Below, piece by piece: positions 1-20,177 of a stretch of 64,000 bases of DNA. Below the pieces are notes generated by a model. The model saw only the letters and a list, made by a program, of their open reading frames with translations. It searched no databases and was not told the origin of the DNA. Source of the DNA: Klebsiella pneumoniae (lineage in GTDB: Bacteria > Pseudomonadota > Gammaproteobacteria > Pseudomonadales > UBA5518). The stretch is taken from contig CAMAXE010000005.1 in the NCBI GenBank assembly GCA_945862145.1, positions 99,314 through 163,313 on the forward strand. The letters run 5' to 3'. Positions within the stretch are counted from its first letter, which is position 1. Each line of letters opens with the position of its first letter. The position numbers and the translations under genes were made by a program.

Positions 1-177
1 GCCGTAAGGGCGGCAAGTGCGACCGCGAGTGCGGTACGGGCAAGGCTGTTATGCGTGTTCATATGTGCTGTTCCCCTGTGGTTGTCCCATGGACGCGGTT
101 GAAGGCTAGGCCAACAACCCTGTGGGCGATTATTCGATCAACGCCTAATGGTTATTCGAAAGCCAGAAATTCCGGGC

Positions 178-1988: not shown

Positions 1989-2054
1989 GTTGCGGGCTCC
2001 CTTGGCAGCAATGGGCTGGCGAATCACAGACTAGTGCCAGCGGGCACATCAGCT

Positions 2055-2104
2055 CTTATGCGATACGGAGAGAGCCTTATGCAATGAAACTGCGATCGCA
2101 TAAG
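2055..2104. promoter_or_regulatory. Three CTTATGCRAT half-sites (two direct, 21 bp apart, plus one inverted) in a divergent promoter region
   Basis: CTTATGCGAT at 2055-2064, CTTATGCAAT at 2076-2085, and ATCGCATAAG (exact reverse complement of site 1) at 2095-2104. They lie between the divergent transporter and FAD-oxidase genes. Function is inferred only. Confidence 0.4.
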
Positions 2105-2182
2105 TGCGCCGCGTGCCTGCAAAGGCAGCCCATCGCCAGCCGCACTTATACTCCTCAGGAAGATATCCGCAGGAACCCCGCC

Positions 2183-3670
2183 ATGAGCAGACCAGGCCGG
2201 CAGCAGAAGGATGCGGGCGGCATCACGCGCCGGCAGCTTATGGCGGCGCTGGGACAGCTCGGCATCGGCAGCCTGCTGGGCGCCTGCGCCGCGCCGTCCG
2301 GCAACGCCGCCTGGCGCCTGCCCGGTGCCGGCACGGTGGTGCATCGCGGCGACCCCGACTACGAGACCTGGCGCAGCGCCATGCCCTGGCAGGGCTGGGT
2401 GGCGCCACGCCGACCGGAGTCCATCGTCCGGCCCGCCGACCGCGCGCAACTGCGCGAGGCATTGCAGCAAGCCCGCCGACAGGGACAGCGCGTGGCGATC
2501 AAATCAGGCGGCCACAGCGTGAGCGAAGCCTTCCTGCGTGACGGCGGCATGCTGGTCGACCTGCACGCATTCAGGGGCGTGGACGTCGATGCGGACAGCG
2601 CGATGGCCGCGGTGGAACCCTCTCTTTGGGGGCGGGATCTCGCCCTGCATCTGACCCGGGCGGGACTCGCCTTTCCGGTGGCGCATTGCGCCACCGTGCC
2701 CATGGGCGGCTACCTGCTGGGCGGTGGCGTGGGCATCAACACAGACCAGTGGGGCATTGGCTGCCACGCCGTGACGGGCGCGGAGGTGATGCTCGCCGAT
2801 GGCACCCTCGTGGATGCCGGCTCAGCGGGCCACGAGGACCTGCTGTGGGCCGTACGCGGCGCCGGCACGGGTTTCTTCGGTGTGATCACGCGCTATCGCC
2901 TGCGCTGCGCACCGCTGCCGCGGGACATTCGCGAGAACGTCTTCGTGTTTCCCGCCGCGCGCGCAGCCGAGGTGGTGGAGTGGCTCGAGGCGCTGGTCGA
3001 GCAAGGCATGCCTGATACCGAAGTCATGCTCCTGCTGGCGAACAGCCCGGGGCCCTCGGCCGGAGCGCCGCCGGTGACGCTATGCATCGCGCGGGTGGTG
3101 TTTTTCTGCGCCTCGGAAAACGCGAGCCGCGAGCGACTCGCGCAGGTACTCGCGGGACCCATGGCGTCGCAGGCCCTTTTCAAGGAAACGCTGAAAGCCG
3201 CGACCATCGACAGCCTGATGATCGGCAGCGTCGACGCCGCGCGCGGACTCGGCTTCGGGCGTTCGCATGTGAACACCATCTGGACCGCGCGAACAGCAGA
3301 GGCCGCGACGGCAGCGGCTGCGCAGGTGAGCCGTGCGCCCTCCCCCAAATCACACGCCGTGATTTCCCTGCGCAAGCACACCGCGCTGCGAGATGACGCC
3401 TGCTTCTCGGCGCTGGATCGGGGTTTCGTGGGGTGTTACGGCGTCTGGGACAAGGCGTCCGACGACGCGGCGAACATCGCGTGGTCGGAGGGGTCGCGCG
3501 AGGCCCTGCAGCCCTACGCGAGCGGCAACTACATCAACGAGCTCGATGCCTTCCGGCGCCCCGATCTGTTGGAGCGTGCGTTTTCAGCGCAGGCCTTCGC
3601 CCGCCTGCAGGCGCTGCGCAAGCGCTATGACCCGCAGGGCCTCTTCCACGACTTCCCGGGGCTCAGCTGA
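2183..3670 (+). CDS. Tat-exported FAD-linked oxidase (PCMH FAD-binding domain with BBE-like C-terminus)
   Basis: ORF 2084-3670. ATG at 2183 yields the twin-arginine signal 'GITRRQLMAALGQLGIGSLLGACAA'. 'IKSGGHS' FAD-binding motif; C-terminal 'YINELD...LRKRYDPQGLFH' berberine-bridge-type tail. Confidence 0.85.
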   Translation: MSRPGRQQKDAGGITRRQLMAALGQLGIGSLLGACAAPSGNAAWRLPGAGTVVHRGDPDYETWRSAMPWQGWVAPRRPESIVRPADRAQLREALQQARRQGQRVAIKSGGHSVSEAFLRDGGMLVDLHAFRGVDVDADSAMAAVEPSLWGRDLALHLTRAGLAFPVAHCATVPMGGYLLGGGVGINTDQWGIGCHAVTGAEVMLADGTLVDAGSAGHEDLLWAVRGAGTGFFGVITRYRLRCAPLPRDIRENVFVFPAARAAEVVEWLEALVEQGMPDTEVMLLLANSPGPSAGAPPVTLCIARVVFFCASENASRERLAQVLAGPMASQALFKETLKAATIDSLMIGSVDAARGLGFGRSHVNTIWTARTAEAATAAAAQVSRAPSPKSHAVISLRKHTALRDDACFSALDRGFVGCYGVWDKASDDAANIAWSEGSREALQPYASGNYINELDAFRRPDLLERAFSAQAFARLQALRKRYDPQGLFHDFPGLS

Positions 3671-5189
3671 GGGCAGGCCAGGCGAACTCCACGGCCTGCT
3701 GGCGGGTGTAGCTCTCGAGGCCGCGCATGCCGCCCTCGATGCCGTAGCCCGACTGCCCCGCGGGCTCCGCGCTGTGCGCGAACCCTGCGGCAGGCACGGG
3801 CGGCACGGGGGCACAACACACGCGCACCTTGCCGGCACGCAGCTGCGACGACACGCGGTGGCCCCGCGCGAGATCGCGCGTCCAGACGCTGGCGGCCAGC
3901 CCGTAGCGGCTGTGGTTGGCGAGCGCCACGGCTTCCTGCTCGCTGCGGAAGGGAAACACCGTGATCACGGGACCGAAGATTTCCTCCTGCGCCAGCGAGC
4001 TATCGGCATCGGCGCCTGCAAAGACCGTGGGCCCGACATAACAGCTGCCAGCCCCGCCCGGGGCACCGACAGGAGCGCGACCATCGAGCAACAGGTCTGC
4101 ACCCTCGCCGATGCCCGCCTCGATGAAACCGCGCACGCGCGCGGCCTGCGCGGGACTGGCAAGCGGGCCGAAGCCCGTCGCAGGATCGCGCGGATGACCA
4201 ACCCGCACCGCGCCCGTCTGCGCCAGCAGGTAGCCGAGGACACGATCGAAGATCGAGGCCTCCACCAGAAAGCGTGTACGCGCGACGCAGACCTGCCCCT
4301 GGTTCCACAGCGCGCCACCGGCGATCTGCGCCACCACCATCTCGAGCTCCGGCCCGTCCATGTCCGCGAAAAGTAGTTCCGGCGATTTGCCGCCGCACTC
4401 CAGCAACAGCGGCTTGATCGTGCTCTCGCCAGTGGCGCGCAGCAGTGCGCGGCCGGTGGCCGTGGAGCCGGTGAAAGTCAGCATGTCGACCGCGGCGCTG
4501 CGCGCGAGCAACTCACCGGTCAGGCCATCGCCCGGCAGCACGTTCAGCACACCCGGCGGCAGCCCTGCCTCCAACGCCAGCTGCCCGAGCAGCAGGGCCG
4601 AGGCGGGCGAGAGCTCGGAGGGTTTGAGCACCACGGTGTTGCCCGCCGCAAGCGCGGGGCCAATCTTCAAAGCGGCGTTGATCACGGGGAAGTTCCAGGG
4701 CGTGATCGCCGCCACCACGCCGCGCGGCCGGCGCAGCTGCAATTCGAGGGCGCCAGGGCCCGTGGGCGCGGTCGCACCGTAGTGCTTGTCGATCGCTTCA
4801 GCGTAATAGCGCACGAAACCCGCGGCCACGTAGGCCTCGCCCATGGCGGCCGATATGGGTTTGCCGACGTCCACGCTGTCGCGCAGCGCGAGCTCCTCGG
4901 CCTGAGCCTCGATCCCCGCGGCAAACGCGAGGAGCATGCCGCGTCGCTCCATCGGCCCGGTGCGACCCCAGGGGCCTGCATCAAAAGCGTCCCTGGCCGT
5001 CCGCAGTGCGGCCACTACGGCTTCATCGCCGGCGGCCTCATACACCGGCAGTGCGCCTTCGCACGCCGGATCCGCGCGCTGCACCAGACGCCCCGAGGAC
5101 GCCTCATGGTGGCGCCCCGCCACCAACGGGCGAAGCTCCGGTGCGAGCGCGGCGGCGCGTTGGTGCCAGTCAGTCGGGAGCTGGTTCAT
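3663..5189 (-). CDS. NAD(P)-dependent aldehyde dehydrogenase
   Basis: ORF 3663-5312. ATG at 5189 overlaps the stop of the upstream GMC gene (ATGA, 5186-5189). Motifs 'FTGSTATGR', catalytic Cys in 'LECGGKSP', and 'EEIFGPV'. Confidence 0.9.
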   Translation of the reverse strand: MNQLPTDWHQRAAALAPELRPLVAGRHHEASSGRLVQRADPACEGALPVYEAAGDEAVVAALRTARDAFDAGPWGRTGPMERRGMLLAFAAGIEAQAEELALRDSVDVGKPISAAMGEAYVAAGFVRYYAEAIDKHYGATAPTGPGALELQLRRPRGVVAAITPWNFPVINAALKIGPALAAGNTVVLKPSELSPASALLLGQLALEAGLPPGVLNVLPGDGLTGELLARSAAVDMLTFTGSTATGRALLRATGESTIKPLLLECGGKSPELLFADMDGPELEMVVAQIAGGALWNQGQVCVARTRFLVEASIFDRVLGYLLAQTGAVRVGHPRDPATGFGPLASPAQAARVRGFIEAGIGEGADLLLDGRAPVGAPGGAGSCYVGPTVFAGADADSSLAQEEIFGPVITVFPFRSEQEAVALANHSRYGLAASVWTRDLARGHRVSSQLRAGKVRVCCAPVPPVPAAGFAHSAEPAGQSGYGIEGGMRGLESYTRQQAVEFAWPALS

Positions 5190-6805
5190 GCCGTGTGTTC
5201 CCCTTGCATGTCTGCCCGCAGGAAATCGGCCGCTCGCTCGCCGATCATGATGCAGGTAGCGTTGATATTGCCCGCGCTGATGGACGGGATCACGGAGGCA
5301 TCCGCCACCCACAGCCCCTGCATCCCACGGACTCGCAGTTGCGGGTCGACCACGGCAAGATCGTCCTGTCCCATGCGCGCGGTGCCGCAGGGGTGGTACA
5401 TCAGGCCAGTGTTGGCGCGCAGGTAGGTCTCCCAGTCGGCATCGGTCTGAACGCCAGAGCCCGGCGCGAGTTCGGTATCCAGCAACCGGGCAAAGGGACC
5501 CGTGTTCACGATCTGCCGCGCAAGGCGGCTGCCCTCGGTGAGATCACGGACATCGTCGGGATGCTCCAGCAGACGGTGCTCGATCACCGGCGGCGCTGCA
5601 GGATCTGCGGAACGCAGGCGCACGCGGCCGCGTGAGCGCGTGCGGCAAAGCCCTACCCCGATGGACACCGTCGGCTCCCGGCAGGGCACGGCACCACGCT
5701 CGGTGAGACGATGGTCGGAAGGTGCAAACAGCAATTGCACATTGGGCTGTGCGAGTTCCGGCCGCGTGCGCACCAGTGCATGTACGTGGGCAATGCTGGT
5801 GGTGAGCGGGCCACGGCGACGGAACAGGAAATCCATGCCGTAACCGAGCGAGACCAGCGGGTTCAGGGCACTGGTGAGCGTGCTGCAACGCAACGAGATA
5901 CCGAAGCGCGCAACTGCGTGCTCCTGCAGGTTGGCACCCACGCCGGGCAACGCATGACGCACATCGATACCGTGCGTTGCCAGTTCCTCGGGCAGGCCAA
6001 TGCCCGAACGGATGAGCAGCAAAGGCGTCGCGAGGGCGCCCGCGCAGAGCACGATCCGGGGCGCACGGAATTCCCGGCGCACGCCGCCCACGACACACTC
6101 GACACCGACTGCACGATCCCCCTCGAGAATGAGGCGCTCCGCGAGGCAGTGATAAAAGACGCGAAGGTTGTCGCGGCCCCGCGCCGGGCGAATGTAAGCC
6201 TGCGCAGTGCTGTGCCGAAGCCCGGCACGCTGCGATGCCTGCACGGGGCCCACGCCCTCCGCAAGTTCGCCGTTGGTGTCAGGGTTGAACGGTATGCCCG
6301 CCTCGATCGCAGACGCGATTAGCGCCTCGTTGGCAGGGTGACGCACGCGTACGAAGGCCACCGACTGCGGGCCACCCGTGCCACGGAAGGCATCCGGCCC
6401 TCCCTCGAAATTCTCCATACGCCGGAACACGGGCAACACCGAGGCGTAGTCCCATCCCGTCGCGCCTTCCCGGGCCCAACGGTCGTAATCGGCCCGGTGA
6501 CCGCGCACGAACATCATGCCGTTGATGGAACTGCCACCGCCCAGCACCTTGCCCGCAGGCCAGATATGCACCTGCCCACCGAGCGTGGGGTCGGGTTCCG
6601 CGTTGTAGAGCCAGTTCATGTCGGGGCGCGTGAAGGCGGGCATCTGCCCGGCCGGCACACGTGTGTAAGGGTGGTTATCCGGGCGTCCTGCATCGAGCAG
6701 CAGGACACGACAGGCGGTATCTTCGGACAGGCGTCCGGCCACTGCGCAGCCGGAAGACCCGCCGCCAACCACGATGCAATCCCACATCTCCGAGGCTTCA
6801 CCCAC
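5186..6805 (-). CDS. GMC-family FAD oxidoreductase (choline/alcohol dehydrogenase-like)
   Basis: 'DCIVVGGGSSGCAVAGRL' dinucleotide fold, 'GKVLGGGSSINGMMFVRG' GMC signature, C-terminal 'YHPCGTARMG'. Start is GTG 6805 or ATG 6787. Confidence 0.9.
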   Translation of the reverse strand: MGEASEMWDCIVVGGGSSGCAVAGRLSEDTACRVLLLDAGRPDNHPYTRVPAGQMPAFTRPDMNWLYNAEPDPTLGGQVHIWPAGKVLGGGSSINGMMFVRGHRADYDRWAREGATGWDYASVLPVFRRMENFEGGPDAFRGTGGPQSVAFVRVRHPANEALIASAIEAGIPFNPDTNGELAEGVGPVQASQRAGLRHSTAQAYIRPARGRDNLRVFYHCLAERLILEGDRAVGVECVVGGVRREFRAPRIVLCAGALATPLLLIRSGIGLPEELATHGIDVRHALPGVGANLQEHAVARFGISLRCSTLTSALNPLVSLGYGMDFLFRRRGPLTTSIAHVHALVRTRPELAQPNVQLLFAPSDHRLTERGAVPCREPTVSIGVGLCRTRSRGRVRLRSADPAAPPVIEHRLLEHPDDVRDLTEGSRLARQIVNTGPFARLLDTELAPGSGVQTDADWETYLRANTGLMYHPCGTARMGQDDLAVVDPQLRVRGMQGLWVADASVIPSISAGNINATCIMIGERAADFLRADMQGEHTA

Positions 6806-6887
6806 TGTTGTCAGACGCCACCTTATCCAGCCGCAGCGCCCCCGTGGCGCGCGTGAGCGACCACTCTATCGAGCGCCTGTTCGAGCG

Positions 6888-6897
6888 CCTATGCGAT
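6888..6897. promoter_or_regulatory. CCTATGCGAT motif copy upstream of the GMC/ALDH operon
   Basis: This 10-mer is identical to the one at 10154-10163 and differs at one base from 2055-2064. It lies in the 148-nt gap upstream of the GMC gene start. Confidence 0.3.
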
Positions 6898-6953
6898 GCG
6901 ATCTATTTGTTTTGCAACTACCTGCGGTGTGGCAGCGTGGACGCGGCGCACCG

Positions 6954-7792
6954 TCACCGTGGCCGGTCACCGAGGATGGTGGCCCGGTGCATCACGCGAC
7001 GGTGCGGCATGTAATCGGCCGTGGCGTAGTGCTGCGTCAGGCGGTTGTCCCAGAACGCGAGATCGAAGGGTTTCCAGCGCCAGCGCACGGTGAACTCCGG
7101 CTTCGCCACGTGGGCAGCCAGGAATTGCAGCAGGGCCGCGCTCTCGGACTTGGAGAGTTCGCAGATCCGTGTGGTAAACGAGGCGTTCACGAAAATGCCC
7201 GGTCTCCCCGTCACCGGGTGCGTGCGGACCACCGGGTGCACGACGGACGGGTTCTTGCGACGCGCCTCGCTCAGTGCTCGCGCGCTTCCGCGGTGCTCCC
7301 GTAATCCTCGTCGGTAAAGGCCGCGCTGATGTCATGGATCGCGGTCAGGCCACGCAGCAGGCCCTGCATCGGCGCCGACAACGCCTCGAAGGCGGCAATG
7401 CAACTGAGCCACAGTGTGTCACCCCCGTGCGGCGGCAACACCCGCGCCGACAGCAGCGCACCCATCGGCGGGGTCTCGATGAACGTGACGTCCGTGTGCC
7501 AGGTGTCCGAGTCGGGCGGATTGCGGTCGCCGGTATCGAGCACGATGATCTCCGGAACCTCCGGCACCGCCCGGTACACGGGGTGGATGTGGAGACGGCC
7601 GAACTGTGCCGCGAGGTCGCGGTGCTGCAGCGGCGTTAGCGGCTGATTCTCAAAAAACAGCACGTGATGGGTGTGTAGTGCGTCGAGCAGAGCCTGCCGC
7701 TGCGCGGCGGAGATGCCGGCGCAGAGGTCGATGCCGCTCACCGTGGCGCCGATGGCGGGAGACAGGGCTTCAAGTTCCACAAACACCGCCAT
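6954..7792 (-). pseudogene. tauD: Taurine/2-oxoglutarate dioxygenase (TauD/TfdA family) split by a single frameshift near 7270
   Basis: Two adjacent ORFs in different frames. The N-terminal part (7271-7792) carries 'LHIHPVY...WHTDVTFIETPP'. The C-terminal part (6954-~7268) carries '[12 protein letters not shown]...[24 protein letters not shown]...RVMHRATI'. Both are collinear with E. coli TauD. The frames meet at 'AEAREH*' / '[15 protein letters not shown]'. Confidence 0.8.
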
Positions 7793-7841
7793 CACCGGCA
7801 GCGCCCGCGCGGCACCCGTCCTCCGGTCGTCCGGACGGGGT

Positions 7842-8945
7842 CTACTGCGTGGCGGCCGGAAGCGGCAGCAAGCCCCAGCCGCCGAAGACCGCGCGGAGCT
7901 CCTCGCCCGACAGGCCTTCGGTGATGAACACAAGGGTGGATGTAGCGGGCACTCGGGCGGCCAGCGGCAGCTCCACGGGCGCGTGCAACTGGTGGTGCAC
8001 CGCGTGGATGGCAACTGCCTGCGGGTGATCCCTCAAGCGCAACACGCCCTTCACGCGCAGGATGTGCTCGCCCTGCAGCGTGAGCAGCGCGAGCAGGCAG
8101 GCATGCAGGCGTTCCCAGTCGGCGGCGGGGCTCAACTCGAGCGCAATGGTCTGTAGCGCGGAGCCGTGCCGCGGCAACGCCTGCGCGGGCGGCACCCGCA
8201 GCCAGCCGAGGGCATCCGGCCCCGCAGCCGACCCGGCCAGCCCCAAGCCGAAGAGCCGCGCAGCCCGCGCCGGCAGACTGCGCCGGTCGAGCACGGGAGC
8301 GCGAGGATTCAACGCCCGCGCGAGCCGCCGTGTGTGCCTTGCCTCGCGCGGCTCCACCAGATCCGTCTTGGTGAGAACCACACGATCCGCGAGCGCGAGT
8401 TGCCGCGCAAACTCCGGGTAGCGCAGGGCCTGGAGACCTGCATGCCCGGCATCAACGGTGACCACCACGCCATCGAGGCGGCAGCGCATGGCAAGGGTGG
8501 GGTCGCCAAGCAGGCTCATCAGCACTGGCCCGGGATCCGCGCGGCCCGAGAGCTCGATCAGTACACGCCGGAATGGCGGACGGCCTGCGGCGATGCGCAG
8601 GGACTCAAGCCGCGCGAAAGCCTCCGGCAAGTCCGTGCGCAGCGCGCAGCACAGGCAGCCGTTGTCGAGCAACGCGAGCGATTCCTCGCGCACATCGATC
8701 AGCAGGTGATCGACACCGACAGCACCGAGTTCGTTCACGATGACGGCTGCGTCACGGCACTCAGGCCGCCCGAGCAGCGTATTCAGCAGGCTGGTCTTGC
8801 CGCTGCCGAGAAAGCCCGCGAGCAGCGTGACGGGTATGCGTGCGGCCGCGCTCAGAAGGGCGCCTCGCCAGCGAGGAATCGCGGCGCTCCGGGCACCGGC
8901 CCCGGGCGCCCCAGGAGGGCGTGGACGTCGTAGCCGTCTTTCCAC
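7842..8945 (-). CDS. COG0523/CobW-family G3E GTPase (putative metallochaperone)
   Basis: Walker A 'GFLGSGKTSLLN' and metal-binding 'GCLCC' motif. The only canonical start is GTG 8945, which overlaps the upstream amidohydrolase gene by 94 nt; the true start is uncertain. Confidence 0.85.
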   Translation of the reverse strand: MERRLRRPRPPGAPGAGARSAAIPRWRGALLSAAARIPVTLLAGFLGSGKTSLLNTLLGRPECRDAAVIVNELGAVGVDHLLIDVREESLALLDNGCLCCALRTDLPEAFARLESLRIAAGRPPFRRVLIELSGRADPGPVLMSLLGDPTLAMRCRLDGVVVTVDAGHAGLQALRYPEFARQLALADRVVLTKTDLVEPREARHTRRLARALNPRAPVLDRRSLPARAARLFGLGLAGSAAGPDALGWLRVPPAQALPRHGSALQTIALELSPAADWERLHACLLALLTLQGEHILRVKGVLRLRDHPQAVAIHAVHHQLHAPVELPLAARVPATSTLVFITEGLSGEELRAVFGGWGLLPLPAATQ

Positions 8946-10099
8946 ACCCCGCGGTGATGCCGCGGATCCGCGGCGGCGGCGATATCCGCCACCGGATCAC
9001 CCTCGACCAGCAGCAGGTCCGCGGCATAGCCCTCACATAACCTGCCGCGATCGGCGAGTCCCAGCAGCTCCGCCGCCGCCGCGGTGGCAGCGTGCAGGGC
9101 CCGTGCGGGAGACATGCCGAGCGCCGTCATCTCGAGCAGTTCCTGAGCATTGCAGCCGTGGAAATTGAACGGTGTCCCGGCATCGGTGCCCATCGCGATG
9201 CGACCGCCCGCGGCGAGGAAACGGCGAAAGGACTCGCGCTGCATATCGCGGAAACGCAGGGATTTCTCGAGGAGATGGGCAGGCATCCGCCCCTCGGCGT
9301 TGTCCAGCGTGCGGGCAATGGCCGATAGCGTAGGCACCAGGAACACGCCACGGGCGACCATCAAGGCAGCCAGTTCGTCGGTGATCTGGAATCCGTGCTC
9401 GATGGAATCCACGCCCGCCTCGACCGCGTTCAGGATGCCGGGCGCGCCCTGCGCGTGAGCCGCGGAGCGGCGCCCGAGCCTGCGCGCTTCCTCCACAGCC
9501 GCCGTGAGTTCCTCGCGCGTGAGGTGGGCCGCGAGCGGGTCGAGGCCGGGCGTGGCCACTCCGCCGGTGGCGATCAGCTTCACCACGTCCGCGCCCCTTT
9601 TGATGTTCTGCCGCACGGCGCTGACGGCCGCAGCAGCGCCGTCGATCTCGATGCTGAGCAGGTAAGCGTGCCCACCGGTCATGGTGATGGATTTCCCGGC
9701 GCAGACCAGCGTGGGCCCGAGTTCACGTCCCTCGCGGAAGGCGTCCCGCACGGGCATCTCGGTGAACTCGAAACCACCGAGGTCGCGCAGGCTGGTGACG
9801 CCGCCACGCAGGCTCTGCCGGGCCGCCTGCAGCACCTGCAGGCTCGCCCGCTCGCGCGGCGTGGAGAGGATGGTGGCGAAGAAACCCGGATCGCTGCTGC
9901 TGCAGAGGTGGACGTGGCAGTCGATCAGACCGGGCATCAGGGTCGCGCCGGTGGTGTCGATGCGCGTGCAGGCCACACCCTCAAAAGCCGCAAGCGGCGC
10001 CACGCGCAGAATGCGTCCATGCTCGGCCAGCAAGCCAAGGCCCGCGTGGGGACCTGATTCGCCGTCGAACAACAACCCGCCGCCGAAAAGTGTCGCCAT
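8852..10099 (-). CDS. Metal-dependent amidohydrolase superfamily protein
   Basis: 'PGLIDCHVHL' HxH motif, then 'AAHAQG', 'SIEHG' and 'GTDAG' ligand regions typical of the imidazolonepropionase/Xaa-Pro-dipeptidase-like group. Confidence 0.85.
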   Translation of the reverse strand: MATLFGGGLLFDGESGPHAGLGLLAEHGRILRVAPLAAFEGVACTRIDTTGATLMPGLIDCHVHLCSSSDPGFFATILSTPRERASLQVLQAARQSLRGGVTSLRDLGGFEFTEMPVRDAFREGRELGPTLVCAGKSITMTGGHAYLLSIEIDGAAAAVSAVRQNIKRGADVVKLIATGGVATPGLDPLAAHLTREELTAAVEEARRLGRRSAAHAQGAPGILNAVEAGVDSIEHGFQITDELAALMVARGVFLVPTLSAIARTLDNAEGRMPAHLLEKSLRFRDMQRESFRRFLAAGGRIAMGTDAGTPFNFHGCNAQELLEMTALGMSPARALHAATAAAAELLGLADRGRLCEGYAADLLLVEGDPVADIAAAADPRHHRGVWKDGYDVHALLGRPGPVPGAPRFLAGEAPF

Positions 10100-10153
10100 G
10101 TACGTGCTCTCCCCGCTTGCATCGCCAGCATAGGGGAGCGCGGCGGCGGCCGC

Positions 10154-10179
10154 CCTATGCGATCCGGAAAATCGCTTAT
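10154..10179. promoter_or_regulatory. CCTATGCGAT-N7-ATCGCTTAT imperfect palindrome in the amidohydrolase/araC divergent region
   Basis: Read directly from the sequence. Same core (TATGCGAT) as the sites at 2055-2104 and 6888-6897. Confidence 0.3.
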
Positions 10180-10292
10180 TCGCCCCCGGCGCGCGTGCAA
10201 GGGGCCGTTTGACAGGCGCGCGGCACGGACGACATCATGCTTGGCCGTCGCGCAACCGCGGCGCCGCCCACAGGCAGACCGCCACTCAGCCG

Positions 10293-11327
10293 ATGAACGC
10301 CGAGCAAGAGCAAACCACGTCGCCGCAGCCGCTCTGCGTGGAACCGCGCTCGGTCTATTCCTACTACCACCTTGCGCCGCCACCTGAAGGCACCGAACCG
10401 CGGCAGAGCCTGCGTTTCGAGCCCAGCTTCGAGGGCGCCGAGGGCTTCCGCGAGCTGATCGAGCTGCGCCCGGGTTTTCAAGTCCTGCTCGGTGACCTGC
10501 ACTACGGCAGCAAGGTCGAGTTCAATCTGCGCGAGAACGCCAGCCTCAAGTTCCACTACCGGCTTTCGGGCGTGAGCGATATCCGCGTCAGCGAAGACGG
10601 ACTGATCCATATCGACGACCATACGGGTGGTGTGCTCCTGCACCCCGACGGCATCGTGAAGCAGGAGTCCTACCGCGCAGGGCAGCACGAGCGCTCGGTC
10701 ACGCTGATCTGCTCGGCCGCATTCCTTGCCGAACGGCTGGCCCGTCTGGGCGCACATCTGCCGGCGGCCATCGCGGCCTATATCGCCGGCGAACCGGCCA
10801 GGCACTACAGCCAGCACGTGCCCCTGCGGGCCGGGATGGCCAGCGCGGCGGCAGCGCTCTTCGGGCTGCCGGCCGCAAGCCCGATCCGGCCGCTGATGGT
10901 CGAGGCGCGGGCACTCGAACTGCTGGCGCTCAGCCTCGAATCCCTTGGTGGCGACGGCCTTGAGGTGGAACGCGCGGATCGGGGCCTCGGCAGCCGCGAC
11001 CTGCAGTGCCTGCAACAGGCACGCCGTATCCTCGAGCAGGAATACCTGTCGCCGCCGACCATCACCGCGCTGGCGCGTGCGGTGGGTATCAACGAAGCCA
11101 AACTGATGCACGCCTTCAAGCAGCTCTTCGGGCAGACGATCTTCGATTTCACCCAGTTGCTCCGGATGGACAAGGCCAAAGGCCTGCTCGAGACCACCGA
11201 CCTCAGCATCACCGAGATCGCTTTTGAGGTGGGCTACGAGTATTCCAGCAATTTCACCACGGCGTTCAAGCGTCACTTCGGCATCACGCCGAGCACCGCG
11301 CGCGATGCCCTGCGCCACAGCGGCTGA
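10293..11327 (+). CDS. AraC/XylS-family transcriptional regulator
   Basis: ORF 10209-11327. C-terminal double HTH 'ITALARAVGINEAKLMHAFKQLFG...ITEIAFEVGYEYSSNFTTAFKRHFGITP'. N-terminal sensor domain of about 240 aa. ATG 10293 chosen; TTG 10209 is the alternative. Confidence 0.85.
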   Translation: MNAEQEQTTSPQPLCVEPRSVYSYYHLAPPPEGTEPRQSLRFEPSFEGAEGFRELIELRPGFQVLLGDLHYGSKVEFNLRENASLKFHYRLSGVSDIRVSEDGLIHIDDHTGGVLLHPDGIVKQESYRAGQHERSVTLICSAAFLAERLARLGAHLPAAIAAYIAGEPARHYSQHVPLRAGMASAAAALFGLPAASPIRPLMVEARALELLALSLESLGGDGLEVERADRGLGSRDLQCLQQARRILEQEYLSPPTITALARAVGINEAKLMHAFKQLFGQTIFDFTQLLRMDKAKGLLETTDLSITEIAFEVGYEYSSNFTTAFKRHFGITPSTARDALRHSG

Positions 11328-11388
11328 GGCGGAATCGCAAAGCAGTTTTTTTCTTTTCAATAAGCCCCGCCATCCGGCCGCTGCTAGC

Positions 11389-11415
11389 CTGCGGATCGCG
11401 ATGCGGGATCCGCAG
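11389..11415. promoter_or_regulatory. 9-bp perfect inverted repeat CTGCGGATC-N9-GATCCGCAG upstream of the operon
   Basis: Read directly. Lies 30 nt upstream of the GTG at 11445 and downstream of a T7-C-T4 run (11346-11357). Could be an operator or an RNA hairpin. Confidence 0.3.
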
Positions 11416-11444
11416 CAACCTGCATCAACGAGGAGTTCCGAACC

Positions 11445-12440
11445 GTGACAGACAATATCCGGGCAATCGTGGCACGCGAGGTCGAGGGCCGCACACGCGG
11501 CAGCGTCGAGGAGATCGACGCGCTCTCGCTGCCCGCCGGCGACGTGGTGGTCGACATCGCCTGCTCCACCCTGAATTACAAGGACGGCCTCGCCATCACC
11601 GGCAAGGGCAAGATCTGCCGCAGCCTGCCCATGGTCTGCGGCATCGACCTCGCGGGCACCGTGCGCGAGAGCCGCAGCCCGGACTGGCAGATCGGCGATC
11701 GCGTGCTGGTGAATGGCTTCGGGCTCTCGGAGCGTTACTGGGGCGGGCTCGCGCAACGTGCGAGCCTGCAGGCGGGTTGGCTGGTGCGCACGCCGGCGGC
11801 CTTCAGCGCCGAGCAGGCCATGGCCCTCGGTACCGCCGGCTACACCGCCATGCTCTGCGTGCAGGCCATCACCGACCACGGCGTCAGTCCCGAGGCCGGC
11901 CCCGTGCTGGTAACGGGCGCAGCCGGTGGCGTGGGCTCCGTCGCCGTGATGCTGCTCTCGGCATTGGGTTACCGCGTGACCGCCGCTACGGGACGGGTTG
12001 AGGAAACCGGGGAATTTCTGCGCGGCCTGGGCGCTGCGGAGTTGATCGGGCGCGAACAACTCGCCCGTGATGCCAAGCCACTCGAAGCCGAGACCTGGGC
12101 TGCAGTGGTCGATACCGTGGGCGACAAGGTGCTGGCCACGGCCATCGCCCAGACGCGCTATGAGGGCATCGTGGCCGCGTGCGGCCTGGCCGGAGGCGTC
12201 GGCCTGCCACTCACCGTGATGCCCTTCATCCTGCGCGGCGTGACGCTGCGGGGCATCGATTCCGTGATGGCCTCGCTGCCGCGGCGCCAGCAAGCGTGGG
12301 ACCGGCTCGCCGAACTCGTCGATCCCGCCATGCTGGCGCGCATTTACCGCGTGGAGCCATTGGCGAAGGCCCCTGAACTCGCTGCGGAACTGTTGGCCGG
12401 ACGAGTGCAGGGCCGCATCGTCATCGACGTGAACGCCTGA
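11445..12440 (+). CDS. YhdH/AcuI-type NADPH-dependent MDR oxidoreductase (acrylyl-CoA reductase-like)
   Basis: 'STLNYKDGLAITGKG' and 'VLVTGAAGGVGS' motifs of the YhdH/YhfP subgroup. GTG start with GAGGAG 9 nt upstream. Confidence 0.85.
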   Translation: MTDNIRAIVAREVEGRTRGSVEEIDALSLPAGDVVVDIACSTLNYKDGLAITGKGKICRSLPMVCGIDLAGTVRESRSPDWQIGDRVLVNGFGLSERYWGGLAQRASLQAGWLVRTPAAFSAEQAMALGTAGYTAMLCVQAITDHGVSPEAGPVLVTGAAGGVGSVAVMLLSALGYRVTAATGRVEETGEFLRGLGAAELIGREQLARDAKPLEAETWAAVVDTVGDKVLATAIAQTRYEGIVAACGLAGGVGLPLTVMPFILRGVTLRGIDSVMASLPRRQQAWDRLAELVDPAMLARIYRVEPLAKAPELAAELLAGRVQGRIVIDVNA

Positions 12441-12450
12441 GGAGGCAGCG

Positions 12451-13998
12451 GTGCCGGAACCCATGCCAATGCGACAGGCTCCCGTCGGGCTGGTGAGCGG
12501 CAACCGCCTGCTTGACCACGCCCGGCTGGGCGCCAATGCACGACGCGCTGCCACCGCGCTGCATCGCGCCGGCATCTGGCAGGGCGATTCCGTGGCGCTG
12601 CTACTGCGCAATGATTTTCCCTGGTTTGAAGCCACTCAGGCGGCCAGCATGCTAGGCGCCTCCACGGTGCCCCTCAACTGGCACCTCACACCGGATGAAC
12701 TCGCCTACATCCTCGACGACTGCGACGCCCGCGCGGTAGTCGCGCACGCTGACCTCCTCACGGAAGCCGTACTCGCCGTGTGCTCGGGCCGCGAGGTGAT
12801 AGCGGTGGAGACACCACCCGAGGTTGCTGCGGCGTATCGCATACCGCCGGAGCGCTGCCGCGCGCCGGGTGCAGTACCGGAGTGGTCTGGCTGGATCGCA
12901 GCGCATGAGGAGTGGAGCGTGGCGCCGCCCGTGATGGCGCAACCCCTGTTCTACACCTCCGGCACCACGGGACGCCCCAAGGGCGTGCGACGCAAATCGG
13001 TAGCCCCCGAGGTTGCCATGACGGCGGTGCGTCGCGGCGCGCTCGCCTTCGGTCTTGAGGGCGAGGATCTGCGCGCGGTGATGACCGGCCCGCTCTACCA
13101 CTCCGCTCCCAACTCCTACGCAATGCGCGTCGTGGCACTGGGCGGCACGCTGGTGCTGCAGCCGCGCTTCGATGCCGCCGAGCTGCTCGCCCTGATCGAG
13201 CGCTGGGGCATCACGCACCTGCATATGGTGCCGACGATGTTCGTGCGGCTACTCGCGCTGCCCCCGGCACTGCGCGCGCAGTACGACATCTCCAGCCTGC
13301 GCTTCGTCTGCCACGGCTCGGCACCCTGTCCGCCCGACATCAAGCGGCAGATGATCGCGTGGTGGGGGCCGGTGATCCACGAGTACTACGCGATGACCGA
13401 GACGGGGATCATCAGCGTCTCCGACAGTGCCGGCTGGACCGCGCATCCGGGCAGCGTGGGGCACGCGGCACCGGGGGTGAAAATCCGCATCATCGCGGAA
13501 GACGCCAGCAGCTGCGCCGAAGGCGTGGCAGGCGAGATACAGGTGAGCTCGGAGACCACCCCGTACTTCGCCTACCACCACGCCGAGGAAAAAACCGCCG
13601 CGGCCCGCGAGGGCGATTTCGTGCGCACCGGCGACATCGGCTACCTGGACGCTGATGGCTACCTTTACATCAGCGACCGCAAATCCGACATGGTCATCTC
13701 GGGCGGCGTGAACATCTATCCCGCCGAGGTGGAACACGAGCTCGTGAATCTCGAGGGCGTGCGCGACTGCGCCGTCTTCGGCATCCCGGACGCCGAGTAC
13801 GGCGAGCGCCTGGTGGCGGTGGTGGAATCCGAATCTGACCTGAGCACCGAGTCGCTGGTGAGCGCGCTGCGCCACCACGTGGCGGGCTACAAGGTGCCGC
13901 GTGAATTCCGCTTCGTGCGGCGGCTCCCGCGGGAAGACTCCGGCAAGATCAAGAAACGCCTGCTGCGCGCCGACTGGCTCGCCGCCCACATCGCGTGA
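12451..13998 (+). CDS. AMP-dependent acyl-CoA synthetase/ligase
   Basis: 'LFYTSGTTGRPKGV' AMP-binding loop, 'TGDIGYLDADGYLYISDRKSDMVISGGVNIYP', C-terminal 'GKIKKRLL'. GTG start 5 nt after AGGAGG. Confidence 0.9.
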   Translation: MPEPMPMRQAPVGLVSGNRLLDHARLGANARRAATALHRAGIWQGDSVALLLRNDFPWFEATQAASMLGASTVPLNWHLTPDELAYILDDCDARAVVAHADLLTEAVLAVCSGREVIAVETPPEVAAAYRIPPERCRAPGAVPEWSGWIAAHEEWSVAPPVMAQPLFYTSGTTGRPKGVRRKSVAPEVAMTAVRRGALAFGLEGEDLRAVMTGPLYHSAPNSYAMRVVALGGTLVLQPRFDAAELLALIERWGITHLHMVPTMFVRLLALPPALRAQYDISSLRFVCHGSAPCPPDIKRQMIAWWGPVIHEYYAMTETGIISVSDSAGWTAHPGSVGHAAPGVKIRIIAEDASSCAEGVAGEIQVSSETTPYFAYHHAEEKTAAAREGDFVRTGDIGYLDADGYLYISDRKSDMVISGGVNIYPAEVEHELVNLEGVRDCAVFGIPDAEYGERLVAVVESESDLSTESLVSALRHHVAGYKVPREFRFVRRLPREDSGKIKKRLLRADWLAAHIA

Positions 13999-15200
13999 CG
14001 CGAAAGACCATGCCCGGCATAGCGATCATTGGCGCGGCTGCAACACCCGTAGGACGCCTCGCACCGCGCGCCGGCGCCATGGCCGAGGGCTTCGATCACG
14101 ACGTGCTCGGCGCCGTGGCGCTGCAAGCCATGAGCGAGGCCGGCATCACGCCGCGTGACATCGACAGCGCGGTCTTCACCGCGCCACCACCGACCACCCG
14201 CCAGCTCGGCTTCGGCAGTTTCATGGCTGCGCAACTGGGCCTGCGCCTGCGCGGCCAGCTCGCGGAAGTGCAGGAAATGGGCATCACCGGCGGCCTCGCT
14301 TTCGACCAGGCGGCGGCGGACGTGATGCTGGGCCGCGCGGATTTCGCACTGGCCTTGGGCGTTGCCATCCAGAGTGGCGCCGACAGCGGCATGGCCATGG
14401 ACCACTCGGTACGCGTGGTCGGTGACGTCGACTTCCAGTCGCCGTTCGGTCTCACGCCCATCGCCTGGTACGCCTTCGACGCCGCACGCTACATGCATGA
14501 GACGGGCGCCACGCGTGCCGATATCGCGCATGTCGCGTTGAAGAGCCGCGGCTTCGCCAGACACAACCCGCTCGCCCAGTTCCGCGAGCCACTCGGCCTA
14601 GACGAAGTCCTGCGACAACCGATGGTGGTGGAGCCGTTGGGTCGACTCGAGGTGCCCGCGCGTGCCGACGGCGCGATCTGCCTGGTGCTGTGCTCACCGG
14701 AACGGGCGCGCGCACTCGGTGTGCCGGCCGTCGAGGTCACGGGGCGCGGATTTGCCAGCGATGGCCACCACCAGATGGGCGATCACCACCACGACATCAC
14801 GGCGTTCCCCGCTGCACATGGTGCGGCAGCAGCAGCACTCACCGAGGCACGCTGCTCGATAAAAGACATTGATATCGCCGAACTCTACGCACCCTGCACC
14901 ATCACCGAGGTGCTGGTGAGCGAGGCGCTCGGCATGTTTCCGCGCGGGCATGGCGCCGCAGCCGCGCGCGAGGGGCGCACCGGCCCCGGTGGCGACCGGC
15001 CGCTGAACACCTCGGGCGGCTGCCTCGCCCGCGGCCATCCGCCCTCACTCACCGCGCTGTACGGTTTGCTGGAGCTGCGCGAGCAATTGCTCGGCAGGGC
15101 GGGAGCGCGCCAGTTGCAGGGCGCACGTCGCGGCCTGCACATCTGCGAACTGGGTAATTACAACGCGGCTCTGGCGCACGTGCTGGAGCGACTCGCATGA
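13995..15200 (+). CDS. Thiolase-like protein, SCP-x/Ltp type
   Basis: Thiolase-fold protein with 'IAIIGAAATPVGR' N-terminus and C-terminal 'NTSGGCLARGHP'. Overlaps both neighbours by 4 nt. ATG 14010 is an alternative start. Confidence 0.8.
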   Translation: MTRKTMPGIAIIGAAATPVGRLAPRAGAMAEGFDHDVLGAVALQAMSEAGITPRDIDSAVFTAPPPTTRQLGFGSFMAAQLGLRLRGQLAEVQEMGITGGLAFDQAAADVMLGRADFALALGVAIQSGADSGMAMDHSVRVVGDVDFQSPFGLTPIAWYAFDAARYMHETGATRADIAHVALKSRGFARHNPLAQFREPLGLDEVLRQPMVVEPLGRLEVPARADGAICLVLCSPERARALGVPAVEVTGRGFASDGHHQMGDHHHDITAFPAAHGAAAAALTEARCSIKDIDIAELYAPCTITEVLVSEALGMFPRGHGAAAAREGRTGPGGDRPLNTSGGCLARGHPPSLTALYGLLELREQLLGRAGARQLQGARRGLHICELGNYNAALAHVLERLA

Positions 15201-15628
15201 GCCTGCCACAGGTAGTGCTCCCGGGCCGGCGCGGCATACCGCCACGCGTGAACACCTTCACCGCGCGGTTCTGGAGCGCACTCGAAGACGGCGCATTGCC
15301 GGGCACCCGCTGCAACGCCTGCGCGCATCTCACATTCCCGCCGCGCCGCATCTGCATTGCCTGCGGCGCGCAGGATCCGGAGTGGATCGAGCTTTCAGGC
15401 GCAGGCACGTTGTATTCGGCCACGGTGATCCACGCCGGACCCTCTCTCTACTGGGCGGGCGGGCCTTACACCGTCGGGATCATCGATCTCGCCGAGGGGC
15501 CGCGCCTGGTGACGCGCGTGCTGGGCGCATTGCCCCCACCGATCGGCAGCCCGATGCAGATGGTCGTGACGCGCCACGACGACGGCTGCCTATTCGCGGC
15601 CACGCTGGCCGCAGCCGCAGACAATTGA
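15197..15628 (+). CDS. DUF35 OB-fold/Zn-ribbon protein (partner of the thiolase-like protein)
   Basis: 'CNACAHLTFPPRRICIACG' CxxC...CxxC ribbon followed by an OB-fold-like region. ATGA overlap with the thiolase-like gene. Confidence 0.8.
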   Translation: MSLPQVVLPGRRGIPPRVNTFTARFWSALEDGALPGTRCNACAHLTFPPRRICIACGAQDPEWIELSGAGTLYSATVIHAGPSLYWAGGPYTVGIIDLAEGPRLVTRVLGALPPPIGSPMQMVVTRHDDGCLFAATLAAAADN

Positions 15629-15642
15629 GGAGAGGACATTCC

Positions 15643-17720: not shown

Positions 17721-17737
17721 GCAAGAGGAAAAGCATC

Positions 17738-20045: not shown

Positions 20046-20177
20046 AGCACACGGATCTTCGGGTAGCCCGAACATGCCGATCGAATAAAAACCCGACGCG
20101 GACGCATAAGAGCGGCATCCCGACGCGCCCGTATACTGCGGCGCTCCATGTAATCGTCCCTCTCCGGATCCGACCCC

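Follow-up and report, generated by a model that had tools for sequence, protein, structure and literature searches.

Closest described systems

In the standard class II layout of AraC/XylS activators, the proximal of two direct-repeat units sits where the -35 of the promoter, itself poor, should be. Direct repeats with a 21-bp spacing that border the -35 are a signature of the family (AraC, RhaS, XylS and MelR). The locus described here lies in a 64 kb window (the whole stretch of DNA that was analysed) and resembles araI1-I2 at pBAD, RhaS at rhaBAD, XylS at Pm and MelR site 2' in having two co-oriented units on one DNA face, approximately 21 bp apart, with the proximal unit predicted to lie over the -35 position of a promoter whose -35 is poor. 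As in other AraC/XylS systems, a protein combining a cupin-like sensor domain with a double helix-turn-helix (HTH) is encoded divergently from, or adjacent to, its putative targets. Unlike the described class II sites, the arrangement recurs at seven promoters in one locus, and the N-terminal domain of the regulator has no Pfam family. The repeated unit, ATYGCAWAAGC, matched no recognition sequence in the literature searched, where the motif words gave chance primer matches only; we know of no AraC/XylS recognition sequence of this kind.

With respect to gene functions, the cluster can be compared with the peg (polyethylene glycol) operon of Sphingopyxis, which encodes a TonB-dependent receptor, a GMC flavoprotein dehydrogenase, an aldehyde dehydrogenase, a permease, an acyl-CoA synthetase, and the AraC-type positive regulator PegR (PMC11644497). 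The same set of functions appears to be present here, the comparison being one of functions rather than of PegR sequence or binding site. Gene order differs, however, and the present cluster additionally encodes AcuI, a FAD/BBE oxidase, a SnoaL-like protein and a thiolase; unlike in peg, no GalR-type second regulator was seen in it. Relatives in Novosphingobium also have the present cluster.

The regulator and its candidate target genes

The regulator gene is flanked by two blocks of genes:

10293..11327, plus strand: AraC-family regulator gene (344 aa; N-terminal cupin-like domain and double HTH)
10209..10238, plus strand: predicted sigma70-type promoter of the regulator gene (TTGACA-18-CATCAT), the sole consensus promoter in 1-12000
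178-660, minus strand: SnoaL-like protein (first block)
657-1988, minus strand: MFS_2/GPH transporter (first block)
2183-3670, plus strand: FAD/BBE oxidase (first block)
3663-5312, minus strand: aldehyde dehydrogenase, ALDH (first block)
5186-6805, minus strand: GMC oxidoreductase (first block)
6954-8014, minus strand: tauD, frameshifted (first block)
7842-8945, minus strand: COG0523/CobW (first block)
8852-10099, minus strand: amidohydrolase (first block)
11445..21161, plus strand: second block, encoding acrylyl-CoA reductase AcuI, acyl-CoA synthetase, an SCP-x-type thiolase, an octopine-DH-family protein, 3-hydroxyacyl-CoA DH, a PLP enzyme, an amidase and an ornithine-cyclodeaminase (OCD)-family protein

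Genes of the second block from 11445 to 20045 are predicted to form one operon, since these same-strand genes abut or overlap. At the window edge, a leftward gene starts with ATG at 62..60, and its N-terminus resembles a signal peptide; it probably encodes a TonB-dependent receptor. In the orthologous locus L016, the matching operator position precedes a TonB receptor.

The regulator carries a C-terminal double-HTH domain of about 100 residues, within a C-terminal part that extends from approximately residue 230 to 344 (Pfam HTH_18, 1e-23; HTH_AraC, 3e-13), and a profile search of the PDB returned the DNA-binding domains of AraC, XylR, SoxS, MarA and Rob. Its AF2 model (pLDDT 88.3) places strands at residues 39-140 and helices at 142-223, a cupin-like N-terminal barrel followed by helices. 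The best Foldseek matches to this model, covering both domains, were full-length Rns, ToxT, CsvR and CuxR (E 1e-9 to 1e-6), and the ExsA regulatory domain was also retrieved. Identity to the four full-length proteins is 10-17%, and whole-chain TM-scores of 0.27-0.38 are consistent with a different domain arrangement; these proteins are virulence or c-di-GMP regulators, whose ligands and targets differ from those of the present regulator. No Pfam family matched the N-terminal domain, NCBIfam yielded nothing above a cut-off, and a search of 5.8 billion proteins recovered only unnamed AraC-like proteins. No characterised homologue was found in these searches, a tblastn search of a plasmid collection giving HTH-domain matches only.

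A repeated word in intergenic DNA

The initial annotation had drawn attention to a word, YTATGCGAT, in three promoter regions of the first block, and the strings are indeed found where it had placed them: CTTATGCGAT at 2055-2064, CTTATGCAAT at 2076-2085, ATCGCATAAG at 2095-2104, CCTATGCGAT at 6888-6897, and CCTATGCGAT-N7-ATCGCTTAT at 10154-10179. An exhaustive count on both strands of the window bore out the suspected enrichment, with four matches to YTATGCGAT against 0.46 expected, a count reached in 0 of 100 whole-window shuffles, in which the AT-richer composition of intergenic DNA is not modelled; TATGCRAT has six matches against 1.41 expected. All four copies of the 9-mer are intergenic, with coding status assigned by hand from Pfam-supported ORFs. 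The 8-mer core, which a non-exhaustive visual skim had shown in these intergenic regions only, is not confined to them, one copy (12836-12843, minus strand) lying within the acyl-CoA synthetase gene. Scans covered the 64 kb window and the retrieved loci.

Read on the strand of the gene served, the word becomes ATYGCAWAAGC and forms half of a tandem direct repeat whose units are spaced 21-22 bp. This reading changes the interpretation of several strings. The inverse copy at 2076-2104 is real as sequence, but its apparent palindrome represents two divergent promoters back to back. Similarly, ATCGCTTAT lies at 10171-10179 as reported, but rather than an inverted half-site it is the minus-strand ATAAGC end of the distal repeat GGCGAATAAGC, located exactly 21 bp upstream of ATCGCATAGGG. 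A palindromic operator was rejected: the spacings of CTTATGCAAT-N9-ATCGCATAAG and CCTATGCGAT-N7-ATCGCTTAT differ (9 versus 7), and orthologous loci display back-to-back divergent promoters and the 21-bp direct repeat. GCATAGG at 10129-10135, considered as an inverted partner, coincides with TATGCT, the -10-like hexamer of the amidohydrolase promoter, which is conserved in L002, L004, L013 and L014. Of two strings described as weaker look-alikes, TTATGCGTG at 49-57 is coding (codons 2-5 of the minus-strand gene starting at 62) and is not a site, the true sites nearby being at 127-161; GCATAAG near 20105 was correctly located (20104-20110) and is a genuine proximal half-site.

Seven composite sites

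In 50 non-redundant intergenic regions taken from distant loci, TTGCATAA, ATCGCAAA, TGCATAAG and GCATAAGC ranked highest in an unbiased count of 8-mers. A weight matrix was trained on distant orthologous loci only (regulator 36-65% identical), leaving out the window and close relatives, and was fitted by one-site-per-region hard EM; this procedure replaced a mixture-model EM with free site frequency, which drifted to a weak AT-rich motif. Single-unit matches at 10-12 bits showed no enrichment in the window (12 observed versus 10.2 expected at 10 bits). Only strong or paired matches carry the signal, and the composite site was tested instead. Above 12 bits, the window contains seven distinct composite sites, where simulated sequences average 0.69 and never exceed 4; above 15 bits, there are five against 0.17. 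Every one of the seven is intergenic and co-oriented with the downstream gene, with its units 21-22 bp apart. The predicted operators and their -10-like hexamers are as follows:

127..161, minus strand: leftward-promoter operator; distal TTTCGAATAACCA (161..149), proximal GATCGAATAATCG (139..127), 22 bp apart; 33.9 bits, the top composite match
103..108, minus strand: -10-like TAGCCT of the leftward promoter, 18 nt past the proximal repeat, fitting the unselected TA...T signal of other loci
2053..2086, minus strand: MFS-SnoaL operator; distal CATTGCATAAGGC (2086..2074), proximal TATCGCATAAGAG (2065..2053), 21 bp apart; 28.1 bits
2028..2033, minus strand: -10-like TAGTCT of the MFS-SnoaL promoter, predicted from sequence
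2094..2127, plus strand: FAD/BBE-oxidase operator; distal GATCGCATAAGTG (2094-2106), weak proximal GCCTGCAAAGGCA (2115-2127), 21 bp apart; 12.8 bits
2147..2152, plus strand: -10-like TATACT of the FAD oxidase, 19 nt past the proximal repeat; ATG at 2183
6886..6919, minus strand: GMC oxidoreductase-ALDH operator; distal AGTTGCAAAACAA (6919..6907), proximal CATCGCATAGGCG (6898..6886); 15.1 bits
6863..6868, minus strand: -10-like TAGAGT of GMC, 17 nt past the proximal repeat; GMC start GTG 6805
10152..10185, minus strand: amidohydrolase-COG0523-tauD operator; distal GGGCGAATAAGCG (10185..10173), proximal GATCGCATAGGGC (10164..10152); 14.2 bits
10127..10132, minus strand: -10-like TATGCT of the amidohydrolase, 19 nt past the proximal repeat; ATG 10099
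11333..11366, plus strand: acuI-acyl-CoA synthetase operator; distal AATCGCAAAGCAG, proximal TTTTCAATAAGCC; 20.2 bits; missed by the initial annotation
11385..11390, plus strand: -10-like TAGCCT of acuI, 18 nt past the proximal repeat; acuI start 11445
20079..20112, plus strand: operator of the ornithine-cyclodeaminase/mu-crystallin-family gene (family by Pfam); distal GATCGAATAAAAA, proximal GGACGCATAAGAG; 20.8 bits
20132..20137, plus strand: -10-like TATACT of the ornithine-cyclodeaminase-family gene, 19 nt past the proximal repeat; ATG 20178

Five of these sites fall in the three regions already recognized and in the araC-acuI gap, and two (127-161 and 20079-20112) are new. The MFS-SnoaL operator includes the words at 2055-2064 and 2076-2085. 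By the matrix, three units are weak (acuI distal, 0.6 bits; GMC distal, 2.9 bits; FAD oxidase proximal, -2.6 bits), and the FAD-oxidase and amidohydrolase composites (12.8 and 14.2 bits) are not significant singly, the null maximum being 21.8. The regulon proposed earlier (transporter, oxidoreductases, and the amidohydrolase/COG0523/tauD operon) is retained with four promoters in the three regions instead of three. On the basis of the composite sites, it would also take in the acuI-acyl-CoA synthetase-to-amidase genes (11445-20045), the ornithine-cyclodeaminase-family gene (20178 onward) and the leftward edge gene.

The TAnnnT hexamer begins 17-19 nt past the proximal unit, and no usable -35 is present. 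A search for sigma70 consensus promoters in 1-12000 found none at the target promoters. Taken together with tandem, co-oriented units about two helical turns apart at 7/7 window sites, the layout suggests that all seven promoters are of the activator-dependent AraC/XylS class II type, with the -10 and start positions predicted from sequence. Because TAGTCT runs into the GTG at 2027, ATG 1988, with AGGGAG ahead of it, is the more likely start of the MFS gene. A candidate sigma54 promoter near 6900-6940 was set aside for want of a GG-N10-GC match, and an Rfam search of 1-23000 for an RNA element gave no match.

Conservation beside regulator orthologues

In Gammaproteobacteria and in Novosphingobium, synteny links the gene set to the regulator. 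In about 30 syntenic loci from these groups, the operator architecture adjoins regulator orthologues, while paralogue loci lack it. Using a matrix built from the 14 units of the window, a site adjoining araC was detected in about 31 of 34 orthologous loci, versus at most one of about 40 loci with paralogous AraC genes. Aligned promoters and the locus scan agree in showing an operator conserved beside orthologous genes and otherwise absent, the pattern of a single regulon. A lack of conservation beside the orthologous genes of relatives, which would have spoken against a regulon, is contradicted by some 30 loci in two proteobacterial classes. Among orthologues just 40-50% identical overall, the double-HTH region scarcely varies. 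In the operator, the A-T-A-A of the core GCATAAG is invariant.

Among 67 non-redundant sites from other loci, the units are mostly 21 bp (44 sites) or 22 bp (21 sites) apart, with 20 bp at the remaining 2; a TA...T signal, not used in the search, appears 18 nt past the proximal 13-mer (T 0.68, A 0.72, T 0.52). Individual promoters show the same pattern. The MFS-SnoaL layout is common to L021, L016 and L004, and the FAD/BBE-oxidase operator has an orthologous arrangement in L021 and L016. Sixteen orthologous GMC promoters share the GMC-ALDH layout, and TAGAGT is found again in L016, L027 and L030. At the amidohydrolase promoter, the proximal repeat and -10 are conserved in L002, L013, L014, L004 and L015 with a diverged spacer, L004 having just one recognisable unit. 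The acuI operator is conserved in nearly every orthologous locus, and the TTGACA of the regulator promoter in L002, L013 and L014.

Proposed mechanism and alternatives

Word enrichment, strand consistency, a fixed -10 distance, and conservation beside orthologues rather than paralogues all support the earlier proposal that one regulator, probably the adjacent AraC protein, acts through a shared 21-bp direct-repeat operator. The motif is thus probably the recognition unit (~ATYGCAWAAGC) of a dimeric activator, most likely the AraC protein of 10293-11327, at seven predicted promoters; the binding protein, activation and transcription starts are deduced from the site and conservation patterns. 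With 21-22 bp between unit starts, equal to two helical turns, both units would face the same side of the DNA and point toward the gene. If TAnnnT is the -10, the proximal unit would span approximately -42 to -32, overlapping the place expected for a -35 hexamer, where none is present, and the distal unit would span approximately -63 to -53. An effector held in the cupin-like N-terminal domain may lead the regulator to occupy both units, and the subunit beside the -35 region would recruit sigma70 RNA polymerase (class II activation). The genes switched on together would be those for the receptor of the outer membrane and the transporter of the inner membrane, for the FAD oxidase and SnoaL protein of the periplasm and for the GMC-alcohol/aldehyde dehydrogenase pair, along with two operons, that of the amidohydrolase and that for acyl-CoA/beta-oxidation. 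With its ordinary TTGACA promoter, the regulator gene would be expressed independently of the operator.

It is unlikely that the repeat, as a true operator, is bound by another factor encoded elsewhere while the AraC protein has a different target. Only part of the genome is visible and the binding protein is deduced, which leaves room for such a factor; yet in two proteobacterial classes the motif travels with regulator orthologues and does not occur next to paralogues, 21-bp direct repeats abutting the -35 are the family hallmark, and among genes 178-25351 no DNA-binding domain was found outside the AraC protein. Slightly less likely still is that the AraC protein binds the repeats but mainly represses, or has a dual role with looping as at araO2/I1. 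Members of the family are able to repress, the divergent region 2053-2127 contains four units, and 25 bp separate the distal amidohydrolase unit from the araC -35, making autoregulation or cross-talk conceivable. However, the sites are upstream of the -10 box rather than over it or the start site, and the target promoters lack the -35 consensus that araC's own promoter has, as expected of activator-dependent promoters.

The fixed distance between the proximal unit and the -10-like hexamer could also be explained by an alternative sigma factor reading the word directly as an unusual -35. This is very improbable: the conserved distal copy 21-22 bp further upstream would be superfluous for a sigma factor, the gap from ATAAGC to the hexamer (approximately 19-21 nt) exceeds the usual -35/-10 spacer, the -10 is sigma70-like (TAnnnT), and the cluster has no conserved sigma factor gene. 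The idea that an AT-rich word simply recurs by chance or composition where intergenic DNA is GC-poor has almost nothing left to recommend it, for although intergenic DNA is AT-richer than coding DNA, a bias that whole-window shuffles leave unmodelled, and low-threshold single matches are not enriched, no shuffle reached the observed count, and the comparative data already contradict it, with register, strand, 21-bp pairing and -10 distance conserved in loci of 55-68% G+C whose flanks have fully diverged.

Implications for a putative pathway

Activation by the AraC protein would itself be textbook AraC-type regulation; the extended regulon prediction is a solid one. We lean, by a modest margin, toward regarding the operator as the first operator and regulon definition for an uncharacterised, widespread AraC subfamily (with a sensor domain outside Pfam) that controls a conserved uptake-and-oxidation pathway, the substrate possibly being a polyether, glycoside or PEG-related alcohol. 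Such a pathway would comprise the TonB receptor, GPH-type transporter, secreted FAD oxidase, GMC and aldehyde dehydrogenases, acyl-CoA ligase, AcuI and thiolase. If so, the operator could serve to mark out the pathway in any genome, and it points to the regulator to purify for finding the inducing compound. A shared operator joins loosely adjacent catabolic genes into one testable unit of approximately 20 kb and at least seven transcription units. The corresponding sequence rule asks for two ATYGCAWAAGC units 21-22 bp apart, followed after 17-19 nt by TAnnnT; it retrieves additional members from Novosphingobium and from uncultured bacteria of freshwater and marine origin. The regulator subfamily itself has representatives in Steroidobacteraceae, in sphingomonads and in Gammaproteobacteria from freshwater and marine habitats.

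Organization and conservation of the locus

Genes were assigned from Pfam and NCBIfam matches.

Genes of the locus (coordinates in the window, strand, assignment)
178-660, minus, SnoaL-like
657-2027, minus, MFS_2/GPH transporter (longest ORF, GTG 2027)
2183-3670, plus, FAD/BBE-type oxidase
3663-5312, minus, ALDH
5186-6805, minus, GMC oxidoreductase
6954-8014, minus, TauD, in two frames
7842-8945, minus, COG0523/CobW
8852-10099, minus, amidohydrolase
10293-11327, plus, AraC-family regulator
11445-12440, plus, AcuI-type acrylyl-CoA reductase
12451-13998, plus, acyl-CoA synthetase
to 20045, plus, thiolase, octopine-DH-family, 3-hydroxyacyl-CoA DH, PLP enzyme, amidase
20178-21161, plus, ornithine-cyclodeaminase (OCD)-family gene

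Scanning of species-representative genomes with the regulator recovered a near-identical contig (L001, 99%) from a Gammaproteobacteria metagenome-assembled genome (MAG) and two further relatives at ~91%; more distant syntenic loci (44-50% identity) came from other Gammaproteobacteria/Pseudomonadales MAGs and from Novosphingobium. A second scan, of metagenomes and with five aligned orthologues as the query, yielded ~30 additional syntenic loci. The conserved core reads [TonB receptor, MFS, SnoaL] ← → FAD oxidase, ← ALDH ← GMC, → AraC → AcuI → acyl-CoA synthetase (→ thiolase). Insertion of amidohydrolase-COG0523-tauD is confined to close relatives of the window, to L004 (a lower-GC MAG, regulator 50% identical) and to L015.

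A predicted shared operator at seven promoters

The initial annotation had noted YTATGCGAT in three promoter regions of the 178-10099 block, and every listed string was present at its coordinates. An exhaustive count on both strands of the 64-kb window found four matches (2056+, 2095-, 6889+ and 10155+), versus a mean of 0.46 in 100 dinucleotide-preserving shuffles, none of which reached four. The core had been seen only in intergenic DNA; this holds for five of the six copies of the looser form TATGCRAT (1.41 expected), the sixth lying within the acyl-CoA synthetase gene (12836-12843, minus strand). The word is thus genuine and rare, and lies almost exclusively in promoter regions.

When every intergenic region was read toward the gene served across all loci, a recurrent layout emerged: a distal unit (~ATYGCAAAR) and, 21-22 bp on, a proximal unit (~WTYGCATAAGC), followed after 17-20 nt by a TAnnnT hexamer. 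The originally listed CTTATGCGAT is the reverse complement of the repeat unit. The layout recurs upstream of orthologous genes in relatives. In L004, units occupy positions matching those of the window: the SnoaL/FAD-oxidase divergent region holds two with 21-bp spacing, and another lies 55 nt upstream of the amidohydrolase ATG, a distance equal to the window's. In almost all loci the araC-acuI gap, initially unflagged, contains AATCGCAAAG-N-TCAATAAGC.

In an unbiased presence count of 8-mers over 50 intergenic regions, non-redundant and drawn solely from distant loci (the window and relatives at ≥87% identity excluded), the most frequent were TTGCATAA (16 regions), ATCGCAAA (12), TGCATAAG (10) and GCATAAGC (9). 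These regions served to train a 13-column matrix (12.35 bits; consensus TTTCGCATAAGCA), with which the window was searched for pairs of matches on the same strand, 20-22 bp apart. Only seven composite places exceeded 12 bits, all intergenic and each directed at the downstream gene, versus a mean of 0.69 (maximum 4) in first-order Markov simulations; five exceeded 15 bits (simulated 0.17, maximum 2). Single-unit matches at 10-12 bits were not enriched in the window, and some units are weak; the signal resides in strong units, pairing and position. The operator proposed for three promoter regions is supported there and extends to seven promoters over ~20 kb.

Predicted promoters (site, strand, score; distal and proximal units; -10 hexamer; start)
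P1 (edge gene): 127-161, minus, 33.9 bits; 161..149, 139..127; TAGCCT 108..103; ATG 62..60
P_MFS: 2053-2086, minus, 28.1 bits; 2086..2074, 2065..2053; TAGTCT 2033..2028; ATG 1988
P_FADox: 2094-2127, plus, 12.8 bits; 2094-2106, 2115-2127; TATACT 2147-2152; ATG 2183
P_GMC: 6886-6919, minus, 15.1 bits; 6919..6907, 6898..6886; TAGAGT 6868..6863; GTG 6805
P_amido: 10152-10185, minus, 14.2 bits; 10185..10173, 10164..10152; TATGCT 10132..10127; ATG 10099
P_acuI: 11333-11366, plus, 20.2 bits; 11333-11345, 11354-11366; TAGCCT 11385-11390; 11445
P_ocd: 20079-20112, plus, 20.8 bits; 20079-20091, 20100-20112; TATACT 20132-20137; ATG 20178

Two apparent inverted repeats were rejected: the palindrome at 2076-2104 is formed by the back-to-back distal units of two divergent promoters, P_MFS and P_FADox, and ATCGCTTAT at 10171-10179 is a wrong-strand reading of the 3' end of P_amido's distal unit. 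GTG 2027 was likewise rejected as the MFS start because it overlaps the proposed P_MFS -10 box; ATG 1988, preceded by an AGGGAG ribosome-binding site, is more likely.

The strongest operator precedes the edge gene (1-62, minus strand), which has a signal-peptide-like N-terminus (MNTHNSLARTALAVALAALT...) and is truncated by the window edge. Receptors at the syntenic positions in two relatives (L016, 2183-4462; L006, 15959-18307) suggest that it is probably a TonB-dependent receptor; the corresponding L016 site and the strongest L006 site each lie 5' of such a receptor gene.

The AraC-family regulator

Pfam places HTH_18/HTH_AraC at residues ~260-340 of the regulator; for its N-terminal 250 residues (10293-11050) there was no Pfam hit, even with a cut-off as loose as E<1. 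An AlphaFold2 model built with 42 homologues is confident (mean pLDDT 88.3) and comprises a domain rich in beta strands (39-140), helices that form a linker or dimerization region, and a double HTH. The sensor domain is confidently predicted to be a cupin-like beta domain and represents an undescribed sensor-domain subfamily of AraC proteins. In the PDB, Foldseek matched the model to the full-length proteins Rns, ToxT, CsvR and CuxR and to the regulatory domain of ExsA (E 8e-10 to 1e-4); TM-scores over the whole chain were low. None of the 149 homologues at E≤1e-20 has a name beyond 'AraC-like', and most come from MAGs. Orthologues with only 40-50% overall identity hardly differ in the HTH region, which fits a conserved DNA target.

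A simple scan of 1-12000 for sigma70 consensus promoters matched only TTGACA-18-CATCAT at 10209-10238, just upstream of araC, and found no -35 element at the target promoters; the TTGACA also occurs in three relatives (L002, L013, L014). Expression of the regulator thus appears independent of that of its targets.

In a reverse test with a matrix built solely from the window's 14 units, ~31 of 34 orthologue loci had a composite site immediately next to the regulator gene, versus at most one of ~40 loci with only a paralogous AraC domain. This supports the earlier prediction that one regulator, possibly the adjacent AraC protein, co-controls the locus through a shared operator. Binding of the repeats by a different transcription factor is unlikely; no other DNA-binding protein was found among the genes lying at 178-25351. 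Sites, statistics, orientation, spacing, conservation and fold are established here.

Proposed mechanism and related systems

When 67 non-redundant sites of other loci were aligned at their proximal unit, an unselected TA...T signal emerged 18 nt after the proximal 13-mer (T 0.68, A 0.72, T 0.52), a putative sigma70-type -10 box at fixed distance. Taking the hexamers as -10 boxes would place the proximal unit at ~-42 to -32 and the distal unit at ~-63 to -53. Two co-oriented units in a class II activator layout characterize araI1-I2, RhaS, XylS-Pm and MelR, and the layout predicted for the window's sites is the same. Which protein binds, whether it activates, where transcription begins and which effector acts are inferred. 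As the best explanation, an effector-bound dimer of the AraC protein would sit on the two units, on one helix face, with its promoter-proximal subunit substituting for the missing -35 contact in class II activation. Repression or dual control is slightly less probable still than another binding factor, the sites lying upstream of the -10-like hexamers rather than over them. That the conserved word is a sigma-factor element is very improbable for a repeat with a conserved second, distal copy, and chance recurrence is negligible given the shuffles and the conservation across loci.

The predicted regulon is another instance of a well-known kind of regulatory system, with no novel mechanism; its value is practical, since it delimits a regulon, and a regulator amenable to experiments, in a widely conserved catabolic cluster without an assigned role. 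The recognition sequence appeared in no relevant paper of the literature searched. Among described systems, the nearest in gene content is the polyethylene-glycol (peg) operon of Sphingopyxis, which encodes the TonB receptor PegB, GMC dehydrogenase PegA, aldehyde dehydrogenase PegC, permease PegD, acyl-CoA synthetase PegE and AraC-type activator PegR (PMC11644497); the likeness is in composition, and kinship is offered as a lead, not a claim of membership.

Additional features of the locus

With the regulator, a set comprising TonB receptor, GPH-type MFS transporter, FAD/BBE oxidase, SnoaL-like protein, GMC dehydrogenase, ALDH, AcuI, acyl-CoA synthetase and SCP-x thiolase is conserved (window 178-21161; loci L004-L045 and L070) in many freshwater/marine Gammaproteobacteria and Novosphingobium. 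By eye, the FAD/BBE oxidase N-terminus is Tat-signal-like. The tauD frames are split by a single-base deletion at 7270-7275 (minus strand; window GAGCA-CTGAGC versus GAGCAGCTGAGC in L001, where the frame is intact), reflecting either a recent pseudogene or a sequencing/assembly error. Downstream of the thiolase, 15007-20045 (plus strand) encodes octopine/nopaline-DH-family, 3-hydroxyacyl-CoA DH, PLP-dependent (PALP) and amidase proteins, followed by the OCD-family gene; this opine- or amino-acid-conjugate-like set lies outside the conserved core of the other loci examined. Directly downstream of the operator-controlled OCD-family gene, a 433-aa ORF (21226-22527, plus strand) with high GC3 and no Pfam match may be co-transcribed with it. 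Terminator-like patterns number 15 in 1-12000 (6.2 expected), many inside the MFS gene (700-1900, minus strand), and the excess probably stems from the T-rich codons of a membrane protein, not from true terminators.
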